Shown: positions 2 to 38,399, counted from the stretch's first letter. The stretch: DNA of 64,000 bases from Candidatus Saccharimonadia bacterium (GCA_038244585.1 JBBRTI010000002.1:258-64257), one strand, 5' to 3'. Notes: generated by a model from the sequence alone, not told the origin. Translations and numbers: made by a program.

Positions 2-367
2 GCTCGTTCCTACGAGCCCGGTATCCACCTGGTCAACATCGACCTCGTGGCTCACTGGGAGCCGGAGGACGGTCGAACCCTCGTGGAAGTCCGTGAGCAG
101 GCCAAGAGCCAGGGCGAGATTCTCGCCCAGCTCGAGGTCATCTCCATCTACGGTGTTCTCACCCAGCTCTTCATGGAGCAGGACGGTGAGAACCTCCCGT
201 ACTCGGACATGCCCGGCACCGTCGTGACGTTTCCCGGCGACTCCGAGCCGTGCGCTCTGTACGTGGACTGGCACCGCATCGGCCGCGGGGCCGGGTTCGA
301 CGCCGACTGGGTCGGCTACCGCAGCTACGGGTGGGCGGCGCCGGTGCTCAGGGAGTTGCAGAGCTAG
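2..367 (+). CDS. hypothetical protein, 5'-truncated by the window edge
   Basis: Open frame runs from the window start to a stop at 367. The track ORF 47..367 starts at a GTG, but the frame is open upstream. A hairpin follows the stop. No recognisable motifs. Confidence 0.45.
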   Translation, partial: ARSYEPGIHLVNIDLVAHWEPEDGRTLVEVREQAKSQGEILAQLEVISIYGVLTQLFMEQDGENLPYSDMPGTVVTFPGDSEPCALYVDWHRIGRGAGFDADWVGYRSYGWAAPVLRELQS

Positions 368-425
368 GACTTCGGTCCCTAGGGGCTTGGAGGGCCTTGG
401 ATTTCGATCCTTGGCCCTCCGCCCC
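363..425 (+). terminator. hairpin cluster after the first CDS (ggagggcc...ggccctcc stem, no clear U-tract)
   Basis: Inverted repeats ctaggac/gtccctag and ggagggcc/ggccctcc lie directly after the stop at 367. Confidence 0.3.
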
Positions 426-520
426 GCAGGGGCGCAAATTCAATTTTTCACGCACGTGGATATTGGAGGAGCGTCCCTTCTTCATGTTCAAAAATTTGCG
501 ATAATCTAGGAGGCAGAAAG

Positions 521-580
521 TTGTCGAATCCGTGTCGTTGTGAATGTGACTCGTCGAAACGCGCCACAACTCGTACTTAA
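521..580 (+). CDS. candidate 19-aa Cys-rich small ORF (MSNPCRCECDSSKRATTRT)
   Basis: TTG start lies 7 nt after a perfect AGGAGG Shine-Dalgarno (508-513). The product carries a CxCxC motif. It sits in an AT-rich region upstream of the rSAM locus. It is below the ORF-track size cut-off. Confidence 0.2.
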   Translation: MSNPCRCECDSSKRATTRT

Positions 581-741
581 TTACTCCTCTCGTGAAAGTA
601 ATCCTCGTTTAAGTTACTCAGAAGGTTTAAACGGGGTCATCCATCACGTATCAAATTTAAGGGTGAAGTTCTATCATCGGACTGAGCGACCTGCCATGAA
701 ATTATTTCGACAACAGCGATATTTGGGTCGCTTTTTGTCTA

Positions 742-770
742 TTGACATTCATTACTTGTTATACTATAAT
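742..770 (+). promoter_or_regulatory. sigma70-type promoter with perfect consensus TTGACA-N17-TATAAT
   Basis: TTGACA at 742-747, a 17-nt spacer, TATAAT at 765-770. It lies about 90 nt upstream of the ATG at 861. Confidence 0.6.
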
Positions 771-860
771 GTAATAATCTTTGAAATGTCACAACTTCAC
801 AGAAGAACCAGACCAATTGAGCTATCCAGCTTTTGGTTGGACTCACAACTAGGAGATGTT

Positions 861-1139
861 ATGTCAAACGCAAGACCCACAGCTTCTCAAACCGCACGGA
901 CCGTGGCGAAGGTGAACGCGGACATTGAGGCTGCCCGCTCCTTCTGTGTCTTCTCCGCAGGTTTCGCTGTATTCGGTTTCGCGAGCAACGCAGTGTCGGT
1001 GGCATATGATACGTTTCGCACTCAGGGCGGATGGCTCATATTCATGGCTGTGCTTTCATCGGTTTTTGGCGGCGCTTCCCTATATTTCTTTTTGAAACAC
1101 AAGGAGCTCCTCGCCGAAAGGCACTCCATCTCCAATTAG
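861..1139 (+). CDS. small membrane protein (92 aa, two predicted TM helices)
   Basis: ATG at 861 is preceded by AGGAG (851-855). The longer track ORF from 540 is AT-rich and crosses the promoter. There are two hydrophobic stretches (FCVFSAGFAVFGFA and WLIFMAVLSSVFGGASLYFF). Confidence 0.55.
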   Translation: MSNARPTASQTARTVAKVNADIEAARSFCVFSAGFAVFGFASNAVSVAYDTFRTQGGWLIFMAVLSSVFGGASLYFFLKHKELLAERHSISN

Positions 1140-1147
1140 TAACAACG

Positions 1148-1176
1148 CCGCCCGAGAGCGTATAATCTCGGGCAAC
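1148..1176 (+). terminator. weak hairpin (cccgaga/tctcggg) after the small membrane protein gene
   Basis: A 7-bp inverted repeat lies directly after the stop at 1139. No strong U-tract. Confidence 0.25.
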
Positions 1177-1439
1177 TAACAAAGTTATTTATATATTAAA
1201 TGGTTTTGATCGTTGCATTTGTATTGTTCTAAGTTCGTCCCACAGACCCTGCCAGTTATAATTCCAAAAAAGTGGCATAAACGAGCCGCTTTTTTTGTAT
1301 TTTGTATGGAGAAGAATTAAAAATTGCTCGTATTAAAGCACAAAGGTTACATAGACTTCTTGGCAATAGAATGCTAAAGTAGGGCCTCGTTAGCTGACTC
1401 TGTTTCCGCAGTTGGCCTGTACCTTTCCAGGGAGAAATT

Positions 1440-2554
1440 ATGTATCAACCACTTGTTTTGGTACCGACCGTTCGCGATCTCCGCTTGTTATTCAGGGCAT
1501 CCGATGATTACGCACTGCTGGCACCTGGTGCATTGGAAGTTCTCAAACGCGCGGTTCAAAAGAGGCAGTCTTTACCGAAATCAATTCTACGGCAGGCTCA
1601 GAGAATGTGGGGGATTGATCTTTCGTCAAATGACGCAGCCCAAGCCTTGCTGATCCGCGAACCCGCTTGCTCCAGCTACGACAACGCCTCTTGGGAACTT
1701 AATATGAGGTGCAATTATAGTTGTGAGCATTGCTATTTAGGGCCTAAATCAATTGAGTCGATACCCATGCGAGAGAGGATAGTTATCCTTGAAACCATGC
1801 GAGATTTAGGTGTCTACCGCCTCCAAATCACTGGTGGCGAGCCGCTCATTGATCGGCATTTCGCAGAAAGCTACATGGCCGCCTATCGAATGGCATGCTA
1901 ATTCGGCTCAGCACCAATGCCAGTCGGCTACATCAGGAAGAAACTTTGAGGCTATTGACCGACTTTCCACCGCTGCATGTAGCTATCAGCCTATACGGTG
2001 CCACAGCCGCGGCATATGAGTCGCTGACTCGGACGCCTGCTGGGACCTTTAAGCGCTTCTTGCGCGGTTTAACGGCAGCCAACGAGGCCGGAATTAATTT
2101 GCGCCTGAACATTATCGTTACCAAGCACAACGATCATCAGGTAGCAGATATGGAGGCACTAGCCGATAGTTTAGGTATAGAACACTTTGTCTATGGGAGA
2201 ATTACTTCAACCTACCAAGGCACCGGAGAAGTTCTGTCCGCTCAAAGTCCGAAGGTGGACTTGCGCAAGCGACGAGACCCCTTTACGGGCTGTAACGCGG
2301 GAAAGACATTCTTTCACGTGGATCCGTTAGGGCGAGCCAGTATCTGTAAATTTGGTCGGGTTCCCTGGATCCAATTACAGCAAGATAGCATTGCTGGTAT
2401 GGGCCAACTGGCGGCTATCTCCGATAAGTTGCTTACCCGAAGCGGTACTTGCGACGGCTGTACGATCCAGTCTAGCTGCAGCACTTGCCCACCGATGGTC
2501 GCTGATTATCGCAGCGCGGGTGCTCTAGAAGACTTTTTCTGCCAACACTCCTGA
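1440..2554 (+). CDS. radical SAM/SPASM-domain peptide-modifying enzyme with an N-terminal RRE-like extension; the frame is interrupted near 1850-1900 (two ORFs, 1440..1901 and 1895..2554)
   Basis: CNYSCEHC is a CxxxCxxC radical SAM cluster motif lying about 85 aa from the N-terminus. The GGEPL glycine-rich SAM motif is present. The STNASRL (TNG-like) motif continues in the second frame. The C-terminus has a SPASM-like Cys cluster (CNAGK...C...CDGC...C..C). GGGAG RBS precedes the ATG at 1440. Confidence 0.7.
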
Positions 2555-2569
2555 GAGGAGGTGATACTT

Positions 2570-2668
2570 GTGGACGACAACGATAGCCTAGTCATTGGTG
2601 AGGGCAATCTCGCGCTCGATTTCAAGCGAGACTGCAGTTGCTCAGGCAGCGACGACAACCCACACTAA
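2570..2668 (+). CDS. candidate RiPP precursor peptide, 32 aa (MDDNDSLVIGEGNLALDFKRDCSCSGSDDNPH)
   Basis: GTG at 2570 lies 5 nt after GAGGAGGTGA and 15 nt after the rSAM stop. It has an acidic leader-like N-terminus and a Cys-containing C-terminus. The stop at 2668 is followed 18 nt later by a strong intrinsic terminator. Confidence 0.4.
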   Translation: MDDNDSLVIGEGNLALDFKRDCSCSGSDDNPH

Positions 2669-2685
2669 CTTTCAAGTTGGTGCTA

Positions 2686-2714
2686 CCGCCCCGGGGATTC
2701 CCGGGGCGGTTTTC
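2686..2714 (+). terminator. rho-independent terminator (ccgccccgggg-attc-ccccggggcgg-tttt)
   Basis: Perfect GC-rich 11-bp stem, 4-nt loop, then TTTT. Confidence 0.85.
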
Positions 2715-2730
2715 CGTTATAATAAATATT

Positions 2731-3579
2731 ATGACAAACGCAAAACTTCTTCAGAAGCTCATCACTACTCCTTACGTGCCGTTACTCGGTCCGGTACACC
2801 CAGATCTCATCGATGAGCAGCTGCTGGCCAATGTATTTCTTGCTGGAGATGCCGACGAGCTCCTGCCCTTCGACAAGGATCGACGCTGGTATATAAGCAA
2901 GCCGGCAATCATTCTATCAGACCACATTTACCGAAGCGTCACAGGCATGATTGTCCCGGTACTATCAAAGGGTTTGGAGCGCGTTAAGCTGTTGTGTTAC
3001 GGAGAAGCGGATCAGGACGATTTTAACAGCTGCGTTGAAGGAGTCAGGAGCTTGCATCCAATGTGCCAGATAACTATCGTCAGCTTTGCTCCCGTTGCAA
3101 CCCCCGTAGACAACGCTTCAATACTATTTCTCAAGCGTTTTTCAGAAATCGATAGTCGATCTGGCAATGCGACCGTTGAGCAAATAAGCGTAACAGAGGC
3201 CGGCAGTCTTGCAAGTTTGGCCGACGACGCCGAAAACTCTGGCTTCGGTTTTCTGGCGCGACAGTATGGCGAGAGGGAGCTCGGACCAACCTTTGTTATC
3301 CGTGACAACGGATTAGTTGTTGCTGCTGTCGGGCCAATAGATACGATGCCGGACTCAGCAGGACAATTATTATGTCTCCCACCATACGTCGGTGTAGCAA
3401 GTAATTATCGTGGCAGGGGACTCGGTAGCCTTGTTTGGCGAGCTGCCATGTCTTACGCTTCCGTCAAGGGGGCAACCTATCTATTACTTCAATCGGAGGC
3501 CGGCCAGGCTTCAGAGTATTTCTATGAGTCTCAAGGTTTAGTAGGGCTCGGAGCAGTAATTTCTAGACCAATAATATGA
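2731..3579 (+). CDS. GNAT-family N-acetyltransferase-like protein (C-terminal GNAT fold)
   Basis: ATG at 2731 lies after the terminator and an AT-rich stretch. RGRGLG matches the acetyl-CoA-binding motif A (R/Q-x-x-G-x-G/A). The ...YLLLQSEAG...YFYESQGL region is GNAT-like. The N-terminal half is unassigned. Confidence 0.55.
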   Translation: MTNAKLLQKLITTPYVPLLGPVHPDLIDEQLLANVFLAGDADELLPFDKDRRWYISKPAIILSDHIYRSVTGMIVPVLSKGLERVKLLCYGEADQDDFNSCVEGVRSLHPMCQITIVSFAPVATPVDNASILFLKRFSEIDSRSGNATVEQISVTEAGSLASLADDAENSGFGFLARQYGERELGPTFVIRDNGLVVAAVGPIDTMPDSAGQLLCLPPYVGVASNYRGRGLGSLVWRAAMSYASVKGATYLLLQSEAGQASEYFYESQGLVGLGAVISRPII

Positions 3580-3852
3580 TTTAAACCCGAAATCATAGTC
3601 GAAACCTCATCAATATTTCGGCGGTGAAGGGTATTCGGGTATCGATGTCAAAAGTTTGGTTCCAGAACATCGTCCCCTGCCATGGATTTTAGGATGAAAC
3701 GGGCTTCGATTACGGAGTCTATTTTTGATTTATGTCTATTAAATGATCGGGCATTTAATTAAATTGACAAAATGCAATATCTATAGCATAGTTTTTGACA
3801 TGTGATTTACGCTTGTATTTCCATGCACCTACAACAAGCAGGGAGTAGTGAG

Positions 3853-4272
3853 ATGCTTTTAAAATTCCTAGGCATTGGCCACCGCCAGCCGGTCGGTGCG
3901 GTTAGTGAGGCACCTCTGTCACGAGACCAAGCGCGCCTGCTGAAAGCCGCAAGGCGGGAGGCGAAGCGACTCGGTGATGAGATGTACGTACACGAAACTC
4001 TGATTCCGATTATCGACCGCCTTTTTGACTCACGCGGAGACCAGGTTGACGTCGGCCTACTGAAAATTACCCGAACCCAAACGGGCGTGACCATCCAACC
4101 CGTTATGTTTGACCCTTACGCACACTACGGAGAGGTCAAAGTGCACCCGTCAGACGTCCTACCGGCCCTCAAGGAGTACTACACGGGTCGCGGGTATACT
4201 ATAACGGCGAAGATGCACCCCGACATTCCTGAAGGTTTTTTTTCGGTTCTACGTATCGTCATCGCTCCGTAG
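3853..4272 (+). CDS. hypothetical protein (139 aa)
   Basis: ATG at 3853 is preceded by GGGAG. It lies downstream of an AT-rich promoter-like region. No recognisable motifs. Confidence 0.45.
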   Translation: MLLKFLGIGHRQPVGAVSEAPLSRDQARLLKAARREAKRLGDEMYVHETLIPIIDRLFDSRGDQVDVGLLKITRTQTGVTIQPVMFDPYAHYGEVKVHPSDVLPALKEYYTGRGYTITAKMHPDIPEGFFSVLRIVIAP

Positions 4273-4284
4273 ATCACAACAACC

Positions 4285-4345
4285 GACCCCGTACCGAAGT
4301 AGAGCCTCGCTCCTTTGGAACGGGGTTTTACTTTTAGTCAATTGG
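4285..4345 (+). terminator. hairpin followed by a T-rich tract (aaccccgt...acggggtttt)
   Basis: Inverted repeat ccccgt/acgggg then ttttacttttag, after the stop at 4272. Confidence 0.35.
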
Positions 4346-4439
4346 CCGTACGTTAGGTGTTGCACCGAACGTGCCCATAAATGCGGAGACAAGGCTAACC
4401 TGGTGAAACGGTTATGCTTACTGCTATAATCGCTACAAC

Positions 4440-5141
4440 ATGAAGAAAACTGGCACAACCCTGTACTGTTTCTCTCCCCCGGTGATGATAGCCACTTTTA
4501 TCATTGAGCTAGCGACGCTGCTCTATACGGTGATTAGATATCGCTTTACACCCCTGACTCGCGTGATTGCTGTGATTCTACTCCTGTTGGCAGTGTTTCA
4601 GCTCGCTGAATATAATGTCTGCGGCAACCTTGGGCTTTCGGCTGACGCTTGGTCAAGAATCGGCTATGTTGCCATCACTTTGCTGCCCGCCCTGTCGATT
4701 CATTTGATAATGATTGTGTCACGGCGGCATTGGCAGTGGCTCGTTTGGTTAAGCTACCTAACCGCCGCCGGCTTCGCCTTACTTTTCGGATTGAGCCAGT
4801 CGGCCTTTGCCAACCACGTCTGCTCAGGCAATTACGTCATCTTTCATTTAGTAGGCTCGGTTGGGAGAATCTACTTTGTTTATTATTATGCCTGGTTGAT
4901 TATCGGCATCTTTCTCGGCCTCTACCTCAGCGTGAATGCATCGAAAAAGATCCGTACGGCCCTGATACTGCAGGTCGTTGGCTACTTAAGCTTTCTACTA
5001 CCGACGGCGGTCGTAAATACGGTGAACCCGCGAACTATCTCCGGAATTCCGAGCATTATGTGTGGATTCGCCATAATCTATGCCCTAATCCTGGTCTTTG
5101 GCGTGGCGCCGCTAATGCTGCCGAAGCGAGCCAGACGCTAA
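4440..5141 (+). CDS. polytopic integral membrane protein (about 6-7 TM helices), function unknown
   Basis: Hydrophobic helices run throughout and the protein ends in a basic tail (PKRARR). No catalytic motifs. Confidence 0.55.
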   Translation: MKKTGTTLYCFSPPVMIATFIIELATLLYTVIRYRFTPLTRVIAVILLLLAVFQLAEYNVCGNLGLSADAWSRIGYVAITLLPALSIHLIMIVSRRHWQWLVWLSYLTAAGFALLFGLSQSAFANHVCSGNYVIFHLVGSVGRIYFVYYYAWLIIGIFLGLYLSVNASKKIRTALILQVVGYLSFLLPTAVVNTVNPRTISGIPSIMCGFAIIYALILVFGVAPLMLPKRARR

Positions 5142-5219
5142 CGTACCGATTCTTTACATCCCCAGCGCGCAGGCAGACACTAAAGCCATAGTTATATCAA
5201 ATTGAATAAGGATCATCCT

Positions 5220-6011
5220 ATGGAACCGAATCCGCCCTCAGTAAGCTCAGCCGGCAAATCCAAATTGACTCTTAGTCTAGACCTGCGCTGGGTAGCTCTG
5301 GCGCTCGTGGCGGTTATCGTCGCCATGCTGCTGGTGTGGCAGCCGTGGAGCCAGGTCGACAGTGTAAATGCACGGACCGTTACCGTCACGGGTGACACCA
5401 CTGTCAAAGCTGTGCCCGACGAATACGTCTTTAGTCTGTCATATCAGAACACGAACGCCGACAAAGCAGTGGCTATTCAGAAGGCTGGTGCTACGAGCGC
5501 GGAGATCATAGCCAAGCTCAAAGCTCTCGGGGTCACCGATAAGCAGATCAAGACTAGAGTAGACGGCTACGGCAACGCCCAACCAGATTATATGGGCATC
5601 GGCCGTCCCGTGCCTGTGCCTTCAGACGGCGGGTATGTCTATACCCTGCAGCTCACCGTGACCTTGACCGATCGGGCGAAGACCCAGCAAGTCCAGGATT
5701 ACCTGGTTACAACCAACCCGACCGGAACGGTCACCCCGATGCCGACCTTTAGCGACGGACTCCGCAAACAGCTTGAATCCAAAGCCCGTGACGCGGCCAC
5801 CCGCGAAGCCCGTACTAAGGCCGACCAATCCGCCCGCAATCTCGGCTTCAAAGTCGGCAGCGTCAAAAGTGTCGATGACGGCGGCGGAATCCGGCCGATG
5901 ATGGGTGGTGTCAGCAGTTCCGAGGCGAAAGACAGCGCCCCCAGCTTCAGCGTCCAGCCCGGTGAGAACGATCTCAATTACTCCGTAACCGTCACTTACT
6001 ACATAAAGTAG
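5220..6011 (+). CDS. SIMPL-domain (DUF541 / BP26-like) protein with an N-terminal signal anchor
   Basis: ATG at 5220 follows AAGGA. A TM anchor is followed by TVTVTGDTTVKAVPDEYVFSLSY... and a C-terminal ...QPGENDLNYSVTVTYYIK, a pattern typical of SIMPL proteins. Confidence 0.55.
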   Translation: MEPNPPSVSSAGKSKLTLSLDLRWVALALVAVIVAMLLVWQPWSQVDSVNARTVTVTGDTTVKAVPDEYVFSLSYQNTNADKAVAIQKAGATSAEIIAKLKALGVTDKQIKTRVDGYGNAQPDYMGIGRPVPVPSDGGYVYTLQLTVTLTDRAKTQQVQDYLVTTNPTGTVTPMPTFSDGLRKQLESKARDAATREARTKADQSARNLGFKVGSVKSVDDGGGIRPMMGGVSSSEAKDSAPSFSVQPGENDLNYSVTVTYYIK

Positions 6012-6137
6012 CCAATGCGCGTTTGAAGCCCCTATATTTATCGTGACGCATGCCATAGACAAGTGTTCCCCTGACAAAGCAAAATGTTAGTACAATGAGA
6101 ATGCATATGATTAACAAACTTATCGGAGGACTAGTCA

Positions 6138-6329
6138 ATGGCTAACAGAGGACAGAATGTGCGCAGCGCAGGTTCCTCAGGTGCCGTTTACGGGTTTGGC
6201 TTTATCGGCGTAGTGATTTATTATATCGCGCACGCATCAACTTTCACGATCGGATTCATTGGATTCCTGAAGGCTATAGTGTGGCCGGCGTTCCTGGTTT
6301 ACGCTATGCTCGATTTCTTAAAGCTGTAG
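6138..6329 (+). CDS. small hydrophobic membrane protein (63 aa)
   Basis: GGAGG RBS precedes the ATG. There are two hydrophobic helices. Confidence 0.4.
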   Translation: MANRGQNVRSAGSSGAVYGFGFIGVVIYYIAHASTFTIGFIGFLKAIVWPAFLVYAMLDFLKL

Positions 6330-6339
6330 TAGGCGAGAC

Positions 6340-8235
6340 CTACAATTTGCTATAGCGAAGCATCAGCGAACTCGTCACCACCGAGACTGAGCTAAACGCC
6401 ATGGCTAGACCGGCAATGGCTGGGTTGAGAGTGAGGCCGAGCGGTACGAGCATGCCGGCTGCCACCGGTATGCCGGCCAGGTTGTAGACGAAGGCCCAAA
6501 ATAGGTTGAGGCGGATCCGGCCGAACGTCTTGTGGCTGAGCGTTAGGGCCCGGGAGACGTCGCGCAGGTCGTTTTTAACGAGGACGATGCCGCCCGCTTC
6601 CATGGCGATGTCCGTACCGGATCCCATGGCGATGCCCAGATCGGCTTGGGCCAGGGCCGGCGCATCGTTGATGCCGTCGCCGACGAAGGCGACCTTGCCG
6701 CGCTGCTGCAGCGTTTTAACGTGGTCGGCCTTGTCGCCGGGCAGCACTTCGGCAATGACGTTGGTGATACCTACCGCGCGAGCGATTGCCGCCGCTGTGG
6801 CTTTGTTGTCACCGGTGAGCATCACCGGTTCAAAGCCGCGCGCAGTCAGGTCTGCGACCGCTTCCGCCGCCATGGGCTTGGGTTCGTCCTGGACGGCAAT
6901 TAGCCCGATGAGCGAGCCGGCTTCTACTATCATCATGACGGTCTTACCTTGGCTTTCCAGTCTGGCCATCTCTTCGCCGAAAGCCGTAGCCGATAGCTGG
7001 AGGCCTTCCATCAAGGCGCGATTACCGACGGCCACGGGCTTTCCGGCCAGCTTGCCGGTTACGCCTTTGCCCTCGACAGCCTGGAAGTCTGAGGTTTTAG
7101 CGACCTCGATGCCTTCGGCTTTGGCTCGGTCAAGAATAGCCGACGCCAACGGATGTTCCGAGACGGCTTCGAGGGCAGCGGCCGTGCGTAATACCTCGGC
7201 TTCGTCGCCGACTATATCCGTCACCACCGGCCGTCCGACCGTCAGCGTTCCCGTCTTGTCGAAGACGATGTATTTGATATTATTAGCCGCTTCCAAGACT
7301 TCGCCGCTCTTGATGAGGATACCCAGACTGGCTCCTCGGCCGGTCCCGACCATCAGCGCCGTAGGCGTTGCCAGCCCCAAGGCGCACGGGCAGGCAATTA
7401 CTACCACTGCCACCGCGAACAACATCGACGCTACGAAACTGGATCCCAGCAGCACGAACCAGACGTTGAATACCAAAATCGCGAGTATTAGCACCACGGG
7501 CACGAACACGCCCGAGACCTTATCGGCTAGCTTTTGGATTGGTGCGCGGCTGTTTTGGGCCCGCCTTACCAGTTCCACGATTTGAGCGAGCAACGTTTCG
7601 GAGCCCACCTTGGTGGCCTCGAACGTAAACGATCCGGTTTTGTTAATTGTCGAGCCGATGACGATATCGCCGACGCCCTTAACCACCGGTAAACTTTCGC
7701 CCGTCACCATAGCTTCGTCGATGGTTGAACTGCCTTGCGTTATCTTGCCGTCGACAGCAATCTTCTCTCCTGGCCTTACTAGGACCAGGTCACCGACACG
7801 CACCTCGTCAAGCGGGACCGAGACTTCTTTGCCGTCGCGCAAGATCGTCGCTTGCTTGGCCTGCAGCCCTACCAGTTTCTCAATGGCGTTGGACGCCCGG
7901 TTGCGAGTGAGATCCTCGAATAGCTTGCCGAGCAGGATGAAGGTAATCAGCAGCGCAGCGATCTCAAAATAGACCTCCGTGCCCGCGCTCAAAGCGTACA
8001 GACTGTAGAAGTACGCCACACCGGTACCCAGGGCAACCAGCGTATCCATGCTAGCCTGACGGTGCTTGAAGGCCGACCACGCGCCTACGAAAAACGGGTA
8101 GCCGCCGAATACCATCACCGGCGTCGCCAAAGCCCACATGGTGAGCTTGTCACCGGGCAGCATCAGCCCCACCATAGTGAGGGCCAGTGGCAGAGAGAAA
8201 ACCAAGCTGATTATAAAACGAGTTTTCGTACTCAT
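6340..8235 (-). CDS. copA: copper-translocating P1B-type ATPase (CPC motif) that lacks an N-terminal metal-binding domain
   Basis: Motifs [15 protein letters not shown] (CPC), DKTGTLT, SEHPLA (HP) and [10 protein letters not shown] are all present. The protein starts directly with TM helices. Confidence 0.9.
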
Positions 8236-8859: not shown

Positions 8860-9882
8860 TTATTTTACGACGATTAGCGCTGAATACATGCCCATGACAC
8901 AGGTCAGGCGGATAGTGCCCGCAACCTGAGGTGGCAGCAGAATGATTTGCGAGTCAGTCTCGCCCAGCAGTTTTTGAATATTTAGCGACGGAATGACAAG
9001 TGACCGGCCGCACCCTTGGGTATTATTGGTTGTCACTGTGAGCTTAATCGGGACGCCCGCCTTGGCTTCCATGACGGCCGGAGCGTAGGCTTGGTCGGTA
9101 ATCGTCATACTCAGTGCATTGTCGGTCGTTGCTACGACCGCAGGAACATCCGGTTGGATTTGCTTTAATGACTGGGTCACAGCGGCGTAGGATATTGGTG
9201 AACCGGCTAGCGTCAGCCCGCTGTCAACCGCTATCACTCCCAGGACTAAGACTGCCACCCCGGCCGTCTTCCAGAACCGTGACTGCCAGCGATTACCCAG
9301 TTTGGTTGTTAGGTAGGCTAGCGAAAAGAACAGAGGCGTAGTTCCCAGAACAAAGGCAAACAAAATTGCAGCACCCGTTACCGGGCTGCCACTGCCTACT
9401 GCCAGTGCCATCATGGCCTGGGTCACGCCGCACGGTATGAGCACGGTTAACGCGCCCAGGAAGGTGGGTGCTAGCCAATTGGCGTCGGCTTGTTTTGATT
9501 TACGCCGGATGTAACGCGTCGCAAACTTGGGCGGCGTTATGGCAAAGTGACGGAATATGGGATGGACGTTTAACAGACGGAATGCCGTGCCCACCATGAA
9601 CAGCCCGATTGCAATCTGGAGAATCGCCCGCATCAGTGGGGTCAGCTGTAGAAGCTGACCAAGCCATCCTAGAGCGGCCCCCAGTAAGGTATAGGACACC
9701 AGTTTGGCGCCCAAAAACAGTAGTATCGGCTGCGCGGACTGCCGGCGGGAGCGGACCGCTGCACCAGCGTCAGTTTCGGCAGGATCAGCCAATGCACTGG
9801 CCAGCATGCCGCCCTGAACCGCTAAACAGCTGAGACCGCCTGCCGTCAGCCCGGTCACGAATACGATTAATAAATTCGACAC
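8860..9882 (-). CDS. polytopic membrane protein (CcdA/DsbD-like TM domain with conserved Cys) fused to a C-terminal cupredoxin-like domain
   Basis: TM1 carries GLTAGGLSCLAVQGG and a later helix carries IPCGVTQ. The C-terminus ...GCGRSLVIPSLNIQ...AGTIRLTCVMGMYSALIVVK looks like Cupredoxin_1. Confidence 0.5.
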   Translation of the reverse strand: MSNLLIVFVTGLTAGGLSCLAVQGGMLASALADPAETDAGAAVRSRRQSAQPILLFLGAKLVSYTLLGAALGWLGQLLQLTPLMRAILQIAIGLFMVGTAFRLLNVHPIFRHFAITPPKFATRYIRRKSKQADANWLAPTFLGALTVLIPCGVTQAMMALAVGSGSPVTGAAILFAFVLGTTPLFFSLAYLTTKLGNRWQSRFWKTAGVAVLVLGVIAVDSGLTLAGSPISYAAVTQSLKQIQPDVPAVVATTDNALSMTITDQAYAPAVMEAKAGVPIKLTVTTNNTQGCGRSLVIPSLNIQKLLGETDSQIILLPPQVAGTIRLTCVMGMYSALIVVK

Positions 9883-36554: not shown

Positions 36555-38399
36555 ATGACTCAAGCTACTAATAACATCCGTAACGTTGCCATTATCGCCC
36601 ACGTCGACCATGGCAAGACCACGCTCGTCGACGGTCTGCTTAAGCAGTCCAAAACCTTCCGTGAAAATCAGGCCGAAATGAAACAGACGGCTATCCTCGA
36701 CACCGGGGACTTGGAGCGAGAGCGCGGCATTACTATTTCCGCCAAGACTATCGCGGTCAACCATGACGGGTTCAAGATCAACATCATCGACACCCCCGGT
36801 CACGCCGACTTCAGCGGTGAAGTCGAGCGAACGCTAAACCTGGCCGACGGCTGCCTGCTGATCATCGACGCGCAGGAAGGCCCGATGCCGCAGACTAAGT
36901 TCGTGCTTACACGCGCCCTGGCTCTGGGCCTGAAGCCGATCGTCGTGGTCAACAAGATTGATAAGCGCGACCGTCGCATCGACGAAGTCATCGACGAGGT
37001 TGGCAGCTTGTTCTTGGACCTGGCCATCAACGACGATCAGCTCGAATTTCCGATATATTATGCTATTGGCCGCGACGGCAAGTCATGGGACCATGTGCCG
37101 ACCGACGCCGAAATTGAGGCTCCGGCTGATCTTGAGCCGATCTTCAATGCCATCATTACTGAGATCCCCGAACCACGCGTCGACGCGGCTGGCCCGTTCC
37201 AGATGCTCGTGACCTCGCTGACCTGGGACTCGTTCCTCGGTAAGTACGCCATCGGCCGTATCCAGCGCGGTAGTCTCAAAGCCGGTCAGGCGTTGGCTCT
37301 AATTGACCGCGACGGCAAAGTTTCAAGTACCCGCGCCGACAAATTGTTCGTTGCTCTGGGGCTTGAGCGTGTCGAAGTAACCGAGGCTGTAGCCGGTGAT
37401 ATCGTTTGGATTACGGGTATTGGCGGCGCCTCCATTGGCGCAACTGTCACGGCAGCCGAAGCTCCGGAAGCTCTGCCGGTAATGGAGATTGAGGCACCGA
37501 CGCTCCAGATTCGCATCGGCCCAAACACCTCACCATACGCCGGGCGTGAAGGCAAATACACTACTAGCCGCCAAATCGGGGCGCGGCTTGAGCGTGAGCT
37601 TGAAACCAACGTCGGTTTGCGCGTCGTCGACCGTGGCAGCGATTTCCTAGTTTCCGGACGCGGCGAACTCCATCTGTCGGTCCTCATAGAGACCCTCCGC
37701 CGTGAAGGCTTCGAGTTGGAAGTCGGCCGGCCGCAGGTCGTTACCAAACAGGAAGAGGGCAAGATTCTGGAGCCCGTAGAAGAACTGATTATCGAAGTGC
37801 CGGAAGAGTACGTTGGCGCGGTGACCGGTGAATTGGGCCGCCGCCGGGGCGAAATGGTAACGATGGAGCCGACCACTAAGGCAACCATCCGTCTCATCTT
37901 CCGTCTGCCAACCCGTGCCCTGCTCGGTCTGCGCAATATCCTGTTAACGGGCACCAAGGGAACCGCCATCGTCAACAGCCTCCTTATTGGCTACGAGCCG
38001 CTGGGCGCACCGTTGCAGCAGCTTCGTAACGGCGTCCTGATTTCAGCTGAGACCGGCAGCGCCACTATTTACAGCCTCAAGACCGTCGAAGAGCGGGGGA
38101 CTGCCTACATCGGACCATCAACCAAGGTTTACGAAGGTATGATTATCGGCCTCAACCGCCGTGGCGACGACATGGAAATCAACGTTACCAAGGAAAAGAA
38201 ACTGACCAACGTCCGTGCCTCGAGCACCGACATGACCACTCAGCTGACGCCCTACACTGAGCTTACACTTGAAGAGGCTTTGGATTTCATCGAAAACGAT
38301 GAGCTATTGGAAGTGACGCCTGAGAACATCCGGATGCGCAAGCGCTATCTGCTCCCTCACGAGCGAAAGCATCACCGCAACCAGGCTTTGGCCGCCTAA
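36555..38399 (+). CDS. typA: translational GTPase TypA/BipA
   Basis: [13 protein letters not shown] is G1 and DTPGHADF is G3. The 614-aa length and EF-G-like architecture fit. Confidence 0.9.

Follow-up and report, generated by a model that had tools for sequence, protein, structure and literature searches.

A predicted peptide-modification cassette with a frameshifted radical SAM maturase within a GC-poor region of a Candidatus Saccharimonadia genome

What is encoded by a patch of low GC content in the genome of a Candidatus Saccharimonadia bacterium? We analysed a stretch of 64,000 nucleotides from this genome (GCA_038244585.1, JBBRTI010000002.1:258-64257; hereafter the window), in which a preliminary description had proposed, at 380-3850, a locus resembling those for ribosomally made, enzyme-modified peptides (RiPPs) and built around a radical S-adenosylmethionine (SAM) enzyme (rSAM). 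Our results support this proposal, and we assign a probability of roughly 80% to the reading that the patch holds a three-gene RiPP cassette, namely an rSAM maturase, a short precursor and a tandem GNAT acetyltransferase. The two outcomes expected to speak against it, a maturase belonging to a housekeeping rSAM family and the lack of a conserved short peptide beside its homologs, were both looked for, and neither occurred.

The small Cys-containing open reading frame (ORF) described as coupled to the maturase stop is indeed present, starting with GTG behind a GAGGAGG Shine-Dalgarno sequence that abuts the rSAM stop codon. The related loci L001 and L009 share this Shine-Dalgarno layout, and in L003, L006, L010 and L012 the peptide ORF has an AGGAGG-type site in front of it. 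Each of the six distinct contexts obtained by exact protein look-up had the peptide immediately downstream of the enzyme; under a strict pattern it was directly downstream in 74 of 92 loci, with variants in 16 of the other 18 (all but L027 and L054), and it followed the enzyme in 65 of the 71 further metagenome loci with enough flank, among the matches listed. The anticipated co-occurrence of maturase homologs with a similar short Cys peptide was thus borne out.

We aligned the peptides of ~155 loci (140 distinct peptides), anchored on the aromatic residue as position 0, and found a conserved C-terminal core, C-x-C-x3-D-D-N-P-[Y/H/F/W]. Across the 140 distinct peptides, Cys occupies 89% at -10 and 89% at -8, position -4 is Asp (75%) or Ser (21%), -3 is Asp (97%), -2 is Asn (59%) or Gln (29%), -1 is Pro (96%), and position 0 is Tyr (83%), His (9%), Phe (6%) or Trp (1%). 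A Cys at -6, present in 11% of the peptides, is the sole Cys of single-Cys variants. The aromatic residue is the last one in most peptides, 23 of the 140 having 1-2 residues more; the window peptide ends in Pro-His and most of its relatives in Pro-Tyr. Since the Cys, Asp, Asn and Pro codons vary synonymously among four non-actinomycete loci, we conclude that the peptide ORF is coding. About 12-15 residues upstream of the first Cys, both clades carry an acidic/hydrophobic leader motif, which reads LVIGEGNLxxDF in the window clade and (I/V)E(F/V)VxDLDxLxE in actinomycetes. Neither Pfam nor NCBIfam has a model that matches the peptide. Two cassettes with different precursor cores were seen in three genomes or metagenome-assembled genomes (MAGs; L029/L055, L062/L068 and L044/L072), and Catellatospora sp. 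NPDC049609 has the two cores CNCNSSDDNPY and CSCNAGDDAPY.

The maturase was analysed as a repaired protein, as its gene is split by a frameshift in the window (see below). The CxxxCxxC motif, proposed to sit about 85 residues from the N-terminus, was found at residues 91/95/98, and C91, C95 and C98 are invariant in 26 homologs, as are seven more Cys (285, 303, 338, 341, 347, 350 and 368). The repaired protein passes the Pfam Radical_SAM model (PF04055) with 62.8 bits against a cut-off of 29.5, whereas its two fragments, taken singly, remain under it with 24.4 and 29.2 bits. The auxiliary Cys follow the spacing CX12GX4C (285-303), CX2CX5CX2C (338-350) and C368, to be compared with the SPASM reference motif for two auxiliary 4Fe-4S clusters, CX9-15GX4C ... 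CX2CX5CX3C ... C. In the AlphaFold2 model (pLDDT 85.6, pTM 0.87), the closest structural matches include SPASM enzymes (SuiB, PqqE and anSME) and twitch enzymes. The N-terminal domain is modelled with pLDDT above 90 as three strands followed by three helices (b-b-b-a-a-a), an order like that of PqqD-like recognition elements; the reference RiPP recognition element (RRE) is a leader-binding winged helix of ~80-100 aa with three strands and three helices. The modelled domain may therefore be RRE-like and bind the leader.

Among the curated NCBIfam families scanned, none was reached at its cut-off by the repaired rSAM. The best score was that of MftC (78.3 bits, cut-off 265), followed by AhbD (75/500), NirJ (72/515), MoaA (59-64/284-325), StsB (NF045574; 60.7/625), PqqE (50.5/381), AlbA (41/850) and SkfB (38/300), every score being far below its cut-off, and the maturase thus matches no housekeeping or otherwise named rSAM family. 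Membership of the mycofactocin family (TIGR03962) is further contradicted by a peptide without the Val-Tyr end, and no mft genes were called in the seven loci L001, L003, L006, L009, L010, L012 and L093. Similarly, PqqE (TIGR02109) is recognised by at least 381 bits, a PqqA with E-x3-Y and pqqB, pqqC and pqqD nearby, and no pqq genes were found in the window or the related loci. The enzyme did not qualify as an anaerobic sulfatase-maturating enzyme either, and no sulfatase gene is adjacent.

One might alternatively regard the locus as an anti-phage module, viperin-like or of another type, whose rSAM would make a modified nucleotide, the small ORF being incidental. Weak PADLOC pVip matches to the rSAM core (62-64 bits) and the position of the Streptomyces loci amid XRE/DUF5753-type variable genes point in this direction. 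However, the pVip matches span the generic barrel only (residues 84-248), for which we rejected a defence system, and the NCBIfam model of prokaryotic viperin (NF038283) gave 55.7 bits against a cut-off of 180. To our knowledge, viperins have neither the N-terminal domain nor the seven-Cys region. Conservation of the peptide at the amino-acid level in ~155 loci effectively refutes this explanation, which we hold to be extremely improbable.

In the RiPP cassette that we propose, the precursor would consist of a leader (about residues 1-21) carrying the hydrophobic/acidic L-V-I-G-E-G-N-L-x-x-D-F, followed by the core C-S-C-S-G-S-D-D-N-P-H. The leader would be bound by the N-terminal RRE-like domain of the rSAM, which would use its SAM cluster and two auxiliary Fe-S clusters to put one or more intramolecular cross-links in the core. 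The likeliest link would be a thioether between a conserved Cys and the beta-carbon of a conserved Asp, as made by PapB and QhpD, with a link to the C-terminal aromatic residue as an alternative; the tandem GNAT would then acylate the product, either as tailoring or for self-protection. We favour a Cys-to-Asp (or Cys-to-C-terminus) thioether tentatively, at clearly less than even odds, because conserved Cys and Asp a few residues apart fit PapB's only requirement: this enzyme joins Cys to Asp in CX3D motifs and needs a Cys thiol and a carboxylate, which may be separated by zero to six residues (PMC9413430). PapB is also reported to accept the C-terminal carboxylate residue as the partner of Cys (PMC12373016). 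Sactipeptides have the Cys sulfur bound to the alpha-carbon of the acceptor and ranthipeptides to its beta- or gamma-carbon; the conserved pattern here is Cys at -8 or -6 and Asp at -3. An Asp-to-aromatic-ring C-C link (PqqE-like) or a modification of the C-terminal residue (MftC-like) are alternative chemistries.

Systems of this general kind, in which an rSAM equipped with auxiliary clusters and a leader-binding domain acts on a precursor encoded next to it, are already well known. PapB/PapA (freyrasin) and QhpD/QhpC resemble the cassette in that the rSAM carries auxiliary clusters and binds the leader through an N-terminal domain (predicted here); as in PapA, the precursor has a Cys a few residues upstream of Asp, and the minimal PapA core CSANDA resembles CSCNAGDD. 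In contrast, no family-level sequence match to PapB or QhpD was detectable, the cassette is accompanied by a tandem GNAT or a kinase-like protein, its thioether is only predicted, and its precursor has one short core with a conserved Pro-aromatic end instead of the repeated CX3D units of PapA. MftC/MftA, besides being the best NCBIfam match, resemble the cassette in their largely actinobacterial distribution, rSAM/SPASM architecture (SPASM-like by Cys pattern here) and short precursor with Cys and a C-terminal Tyr; the differences lie in the score (78 bits vs 265), in the RRE-like domain, fused here and separate there (MftB), in the lack of MftD, MftE and MftF genes, and in a C-terminus of Pro-Tyr/His/Phe/Trp, not Val-Tyr. 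SuiB (streptide) and SkfB (sporulation killing factor) are 17-19% identical in sequence, their precursors receive a Lys-Trp C-C link (streptide) and a Cys-Met sactionine (SkfB), and their operons are found in Firmicutes with a transporter and a protease. StsB of Streptomyces sparsogenes is likewise an actinomycete rSAM RiPP maturase, MftC-like in sequence and with a different Cys-rich precursor (PMC10288494), but the repaired enzyme scored 60.7 bits against the 625 of NF045574, the StsA core is CxCxCx4GxGxG and StsB has ~466 aa. The enzyme family, the peptide and the cassette are undescribed in Pfam 2025, NCBIfam June 2026 and PADLOC, and the literature searched on the motif and on rSAM + GNAT/kinase + actinomycete RiPP gave no description, in line with the earlier suggestion of an undescribed system.

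The third gene was correctly anticipated as a GNAT acetyltransferase, as the C-terminal half of its product passes the Pfam cut-offs of Acetyltransf_7 (27.5 bits vs 27) and Acetyltransf_1 (25 vs 20.7). Structural comparison supported a tandem-GNAT fold, with MshD (mycothiol synthase) among the top structural matches. The homologs retain an RGRGxG loop, which fits the acyl-CoA loop pattern R/Q-x-x-G-x-G/A of GNATs, and two invariant N-terminal motifs, PYVPxLGPVHP and LPFDKDRRW, which are specific to this family when compared with the tandem GNATs MshD, VipF and clavulanate ORF14 (10-13% identity). The tandem GNAT is a genuine cassette member, although not universal across the family: in most actinomycete relatives, a kinase-like gene of the aminoglycoside-phosphotransferase (APH) fold replaces it, or both are present. 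We surveyed the DNA after the peptide by profile searches in 150 loci. Twenty-nine had the tandem GNAT only, with His (12), Phe (7), Tyr (6) or Trp (4) as the aromatic end; 101 had the kinase-like gene only (~270 aa) and 12 the GNAT followed by the kinase-like gene, with Tyr in all loci of both groups; the 8 further loci were unclassified (5 with neither gene, most of them spurious pattern matches, and 3 with too little flank). That the kinase-like gene tracks the terminal Tyr (113/113 peptides) suggests that its product may phosphorylate the phenol. This family carries the APH-fold hallmarks vFvKG, HtDxxpxN and iDWAW, one member fell just short of Pfam APH (22.5 bits; cut-off 23.2), and no Pfam or NCBIfam family was matched above cut-off. 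Kinase-like genes were seen in ~113 loci altogether (for example L012 7344-8147 and L014 4231-5049); none was found in the window.

These data also bear on the possibility that the cassette makes a peptide-derived cofactor or metallophore, not a secreted bioactive peptide. As in PQQ and mycofactocin, the rSAM would modify the D-x-P-aromatic end (by an Asp-aromatic C-C link or a terminal oxidative decarboxylation), and a small molecule would be excised to serve as an intracellular substrate of the GNAT or kinase. Several findings agree with such a role: the core is nearly invariant across phyla, as are PqqA and MftA, MftC is the best NCBIfam match, most of the 140 distinct peptides stop at the aromatic residue, no conserved exporter or protease accompanies the cassette, the GNAT has among its top structural matches MshD, an acetyltransferase whose substrate is a small thiol, and copper genes lie near the cassette in the window and in L001. 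On the other hand, the MftC score is 78 bits against 265 and the Val-Tyr end needed by MftC (PMC10288494) is absent, the aromatic residue varies (Y/H/F/W) and is followed by 1-2 extra residues in 23 of 140 peptides, and in other lineages the cassette has no copper genes nearby. A patchy distribution, with some genomes holding two cassettes and different peptides, also fits specialised metabolism better. We therefore consider a cofactor or metallophore unlikely.

Some points nevertheless weigh against the RiPP cassette as we read it. Pfam SPASM gave no match to the repaired rSAM at E <= 10, and the last Cys spacing is CX2C instead of the CX3C of SPASM; of the C-terminal SPASM cluster proposed beforehand, the seven-Cys pattern stands while the match to the model does not. 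Likewise, the proposed N-terminal RRE agrees with the predicted fold topology, but no PqqD/RRE match was obtained in Pfam or NCBIfam, and a profile of the N-terminal domain compared with the PDB found no RRE protein. The kind of cross-link is conjectured from the conserved residues, and antimicrobial RiPPs usually show much less conservation in the core than is seen here. The third gene varies (GNAT, kinase-like, or both), no protease or transporter/exporter that could serve leader removal and export recurs with the cassette in the related loci, and the maturase is split in this window, where possibly no product is made.

The preliminary description had assumed a single radical SAM product from 1440-2554. 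Instead, we found that a frameshift splits the gene into two ORFs in different frames, 1440-1901 and 1895-2554. In L009, a metagenome contig 97% identical to the window, the gene is intact and encodes 371 aa (P0001); by tblastn, P0001 residues 1-152 match 1440-1895 at 97% and residues 152-371 match 1892-2551 at 98.6%. At the site, L009 reads ATGGGCATG and the window ATGGCATG, and one G inserted after 1893 restores the 371-aa protein. The same deletion is present in a separate Logan assembly (L093, run SRR19962014), 99.95% identical to window 419-2626, so that the deletion is very probably real in the population and a window-specific assembly error is unlikely, with the reservation that both assemblies could share reads. 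Programmed frameshifting is also unlikely, since the site (CGA ATG GCA TGC TAA) has neither an X XXY YYZ heptamer nor a long homopolymer. Relative to L009, the repaired gene shows 18 synonymous and 6 nonsynonymous codon differences, which points to purifying selection until recently. Judging from its sequence, this maturase copy is probably a recent pseudogene, and because of the 1-nt deletion the cassette is probably inactive in this genome.

We find it rather probable that the locus in the window is a decaying relic, that is, a cassette which was acquired and then inactivated by the frameshift and which yields no product. The occurrence of the deletion in two assemblies, the lack of a slippery heptamer or long homopolymer and the presence of a single cassette copy in the 64 kb all argue for such decay. 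Conversely, apart from the deletion the rSAM gene is undamaged, as are the peptide and GNAT genes, and they share 97-98% identity with a relative that looks functional, and the two deletion-bearing assemblies may have a common origin in the same reads. Moreover, ATG 1895 overlaps the stop codon of the N-terminal fragment, so that the gene might conceivably yield two polypeptides that reassemble. The features of the patch are collected in Table 1.

Table 1. Features of the patch, and TypA, in window coordinates.
Feature	Position	Strand	Remarks
Compositionally distinct patch	380-3850	.	GC 48.1% vs window mean 55.3%
Sigma-70-type consensus promoter TTGACA-N17-TATAAT, upstream of membrane ORF	742-770	+	12/12 match; predicted
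92-aa ORF with two hydrophobic segments	861-1139	+	Hydropathy peaks at about residues 29-47 and 56-78
Terminator-like hairpin between A tract and T tract, between membrane ORF and rSAM gene	1266-1295	+	
Extended -10-like element TGCTAAAGT, ~60 nt upstream of rSAM start	1372-1380	+	Putative promoter
N-terminal rSAM fragment, 153 aa	1440-1901	+	Predicted RRE-like domain (residues 1-72), CxxxCxxC, GGEP; premature TAA
Frameshift site, 1-nt deletion	1891-1893	+	GG vs GGG of intact relatives; alignment to L009
C-terminal rSAM fragment, -1 frame	1892-2554	+	ORF from ATG 1895; rest of barrel and seven-Cys auxiliary-cluster region
Shine-Dalgarno GAGGAGG	2555-2561	+	Directly after rSAM stop (2552-2554)
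Precursor gene, 32 aa, VDDNDSLVIGEGNLALDFKRDCSCSGSDDNPH	2570-2668	+	GTG start; alternative start GTG 2561 = 35 aa
Hairpin, 11 pairs (10 G-C) and T tract, after precursor gene	2685-2710	+	Attenuator or terminator; also delimited as 2685-2720
TATAAT box ending 7 nt before GNAT ATG	2718-2723	+	Predicted
Tandem-GNAT protein, 282 aa	2731-3579	+	Degenerate N-terminal GNAT-like half; C-terminal half with RGRGLG acyl-CoA loop
TypA	36555-38399		NCBIfam TIGR01394, 804 bits

Upstream of the cassette, both the consensus promoter and the two-helix membrane protein of the preliminary description were recovered. No family above cut-off was found for the 92-aa ORF in Pfam, NCBIfam or PADLOC, and it is also present in the near-identical contig L093. 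Its proposed role in immunity or export did not hold, and we rejected it as a cassette member, as no counterpart adjoins an rSAM homolog in 86 related loci; it sits in the patch but outside the conserved three-gene unit. The terminator-like hairpin preceding the rSAM gene suggests that this gene has its own promoter. At the equivalent of the extended -10-like element, L009 has TGCTATAAT and L001 TGTTAGGCT; the TGnTAnnnT element being kept, decay of the rSAM promoter in this strain was rejected. In the region as a whole, 13 promoter-like sites were counted against 6.2 expected by shuffling.

The strong intrinsic terminator announced after the precursor was confirmed as a GC-rich hairpin with a T tract, and among 85 loci, 80% have a stable hairpin (z below -2) no more than 70 nt beyond the peptide stop codon, its sequence not being conserved. 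In all five non-actinomycete loci (the window, L001, L003, L006 and L009), the GNAT ATG is separated from the end of a TATAAT box by 6-7 nt, from which we infer a leaderless transcript beginning at the GNAT start codon. The hairpin and the separate GNAT -10 box would uncouple the expression of precursor and GNAT. A 21-nt near-repeat (86%; TTATGxCAAACGCAA) was seen at 856-876 and 2726-2746, the starts of the membrane ORF and the GNAT gene, and gives both a common N-terminus, M-[ST]-N-A-[RK]; this may be due to chance.

The GC content over 380-3850 is the lowest among 606 same-size sliding windows across the 64 kb (48.1% vs a mean of 55.3%, sd 1.8), and third-position GC (GC3) is 0.48-0.54 in the rSAM and GNAT genes against 0.56-0.72 elsewhere among the window genes. 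The patch is thus distinct on both measures, in agreement with the lower-GC island described before, except that its surroundings measure ~55% and not the claimed ~60%. We found no direct repeats flanking the patch, no tRNA and no integrase-like match among the scanned ORFs of bases 47-6011, and mobile-element boundaries were rejected on these grounds. Just left of the patch, a 106-aa ORF (47-367, +) has 67% GC and a GC3 of 0.90, far above the window mean, and gave no family match in Pfam, NCBIfam or PADLOC. ORF 3853-4272, a 233-aa membrane protein and SIMPL were also considered as cassette members and rejected, none being conserved beside the homologs.

The window TypA shares 82-85% identity with its counterparts in several MAGs that bear the label Candidatus Saccharimonadia, Saccharibacteria or Patescibacteria, and 92-95% with metagenome proteins. 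On this protein-level evidence, the genome carrying the patch is assigned to Candidatus Saccharimonadia (candidate phyla radiation, CPR/Patescibacteria). With 55% GC, two-component systems and copper-resistance genes, the window is not minimal-looking. A CopA-type copper ATPase lies near the cassette, at 6340-8235 (-) and 8860-9882 (-), and L001, whose rSAM is 71% identical, has a copper-resistance set (DsbD_2/cupredoxin, HMA, cupredoxin and ATPase) at 3343-6874; such genes were not seen near the cassette in the other lineages inspected. This proximity is probably lineage synteny, and the Cys/Asp/His-rich peptide core could be a metal binder.

How widespread is the family? The rSAM occurs at 454 loci of GTDB species representatives, and at E <= 1e-30 the family has 824 representatives of clusters built at 50% identity. 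Of the 80 loci kept from the GTDB scan, nearly all that are named belong to Actinomycetota, and L013, a GTDB representative labelled Saccharibacteria, has the rSAM, the peptide and the GNAT. In the metagenome scan the matches listed were mostly actinomycete-like, and the Saccharimonadia set was not enlarged. A GNAT homolog (69% identical) and a TypA homolog (93% identical) suggest synteny of the cassette in a related genome. Even members that are divergent, low in GC or distant, with 31-43% identity (L019, a MAG labelled Micavibrio, L158, L162 and L170), keep the peptide, as CACKASDDNPYQT, CSCQSFDDNPHSG, CACKASDDNPWPT and CSCKSGSDNPW, and the family therefore extends beyond Actinomycetota and Saccharimonadia. 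In Streptomyces and Carbonactinospora (L012 326-5669 and L010 3025-5564), the cassette lies amid genes for XRE-type HTH_31/DUF5753, DUF6879, DUF6415 and DUF6247 proteins, with a ribosome-inactivating-protein (RIP) homolog also among the neighbours, and HTH_31-type neighbours occur in ~24 loci.

With an identity of 41-50% to actinomycete rSAM enzymes and a patch GC below that of the host genome, a transfer, if any, was old or came from an unsampled low-GC donor. Cultured Saccharibacteria live as epibionts, and their known hosts are actinomycetes. One could imagine that the cassette makes a conserved signalling or cofactor-like peptide native to Actinomycetota, which Saccharimonadia acquired horizontally to mimic, sense or exploit the peptide of the host; we regard this as a long shot. 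If it were true, the GNAT-only form (His/Phe/Trp/Tyr) and the kinase form (always Tyr) would represent alternative ways of capping or activating one scaffold.

Altogether, these findings describe a sizeable RiPP-type family, with ~450 species-level genomes and 824 sequence clusters, that can be searched for by a simple precursor signature, a C-terminal C-x-C-x3-D-D-[NQ]-P-aromatic, and that comes with unusual accessory enzymes, a tandem GNAT and/or an APH-fold kinase, the latter tracking the C-terminal Tyr. The locus in this window is probably inactive, while close relatives hold intact copies, and the cassette offers natural-product chemists a small, concrete target for heterologous expression. 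It is also among the few candidate peptide-modification cassettes in a CPR bacterium. Because it also occurs in the phylum that hosts the cultured Saccharibacteria, gene flow or chemical interplay between epibiont and host becomes a testable question.

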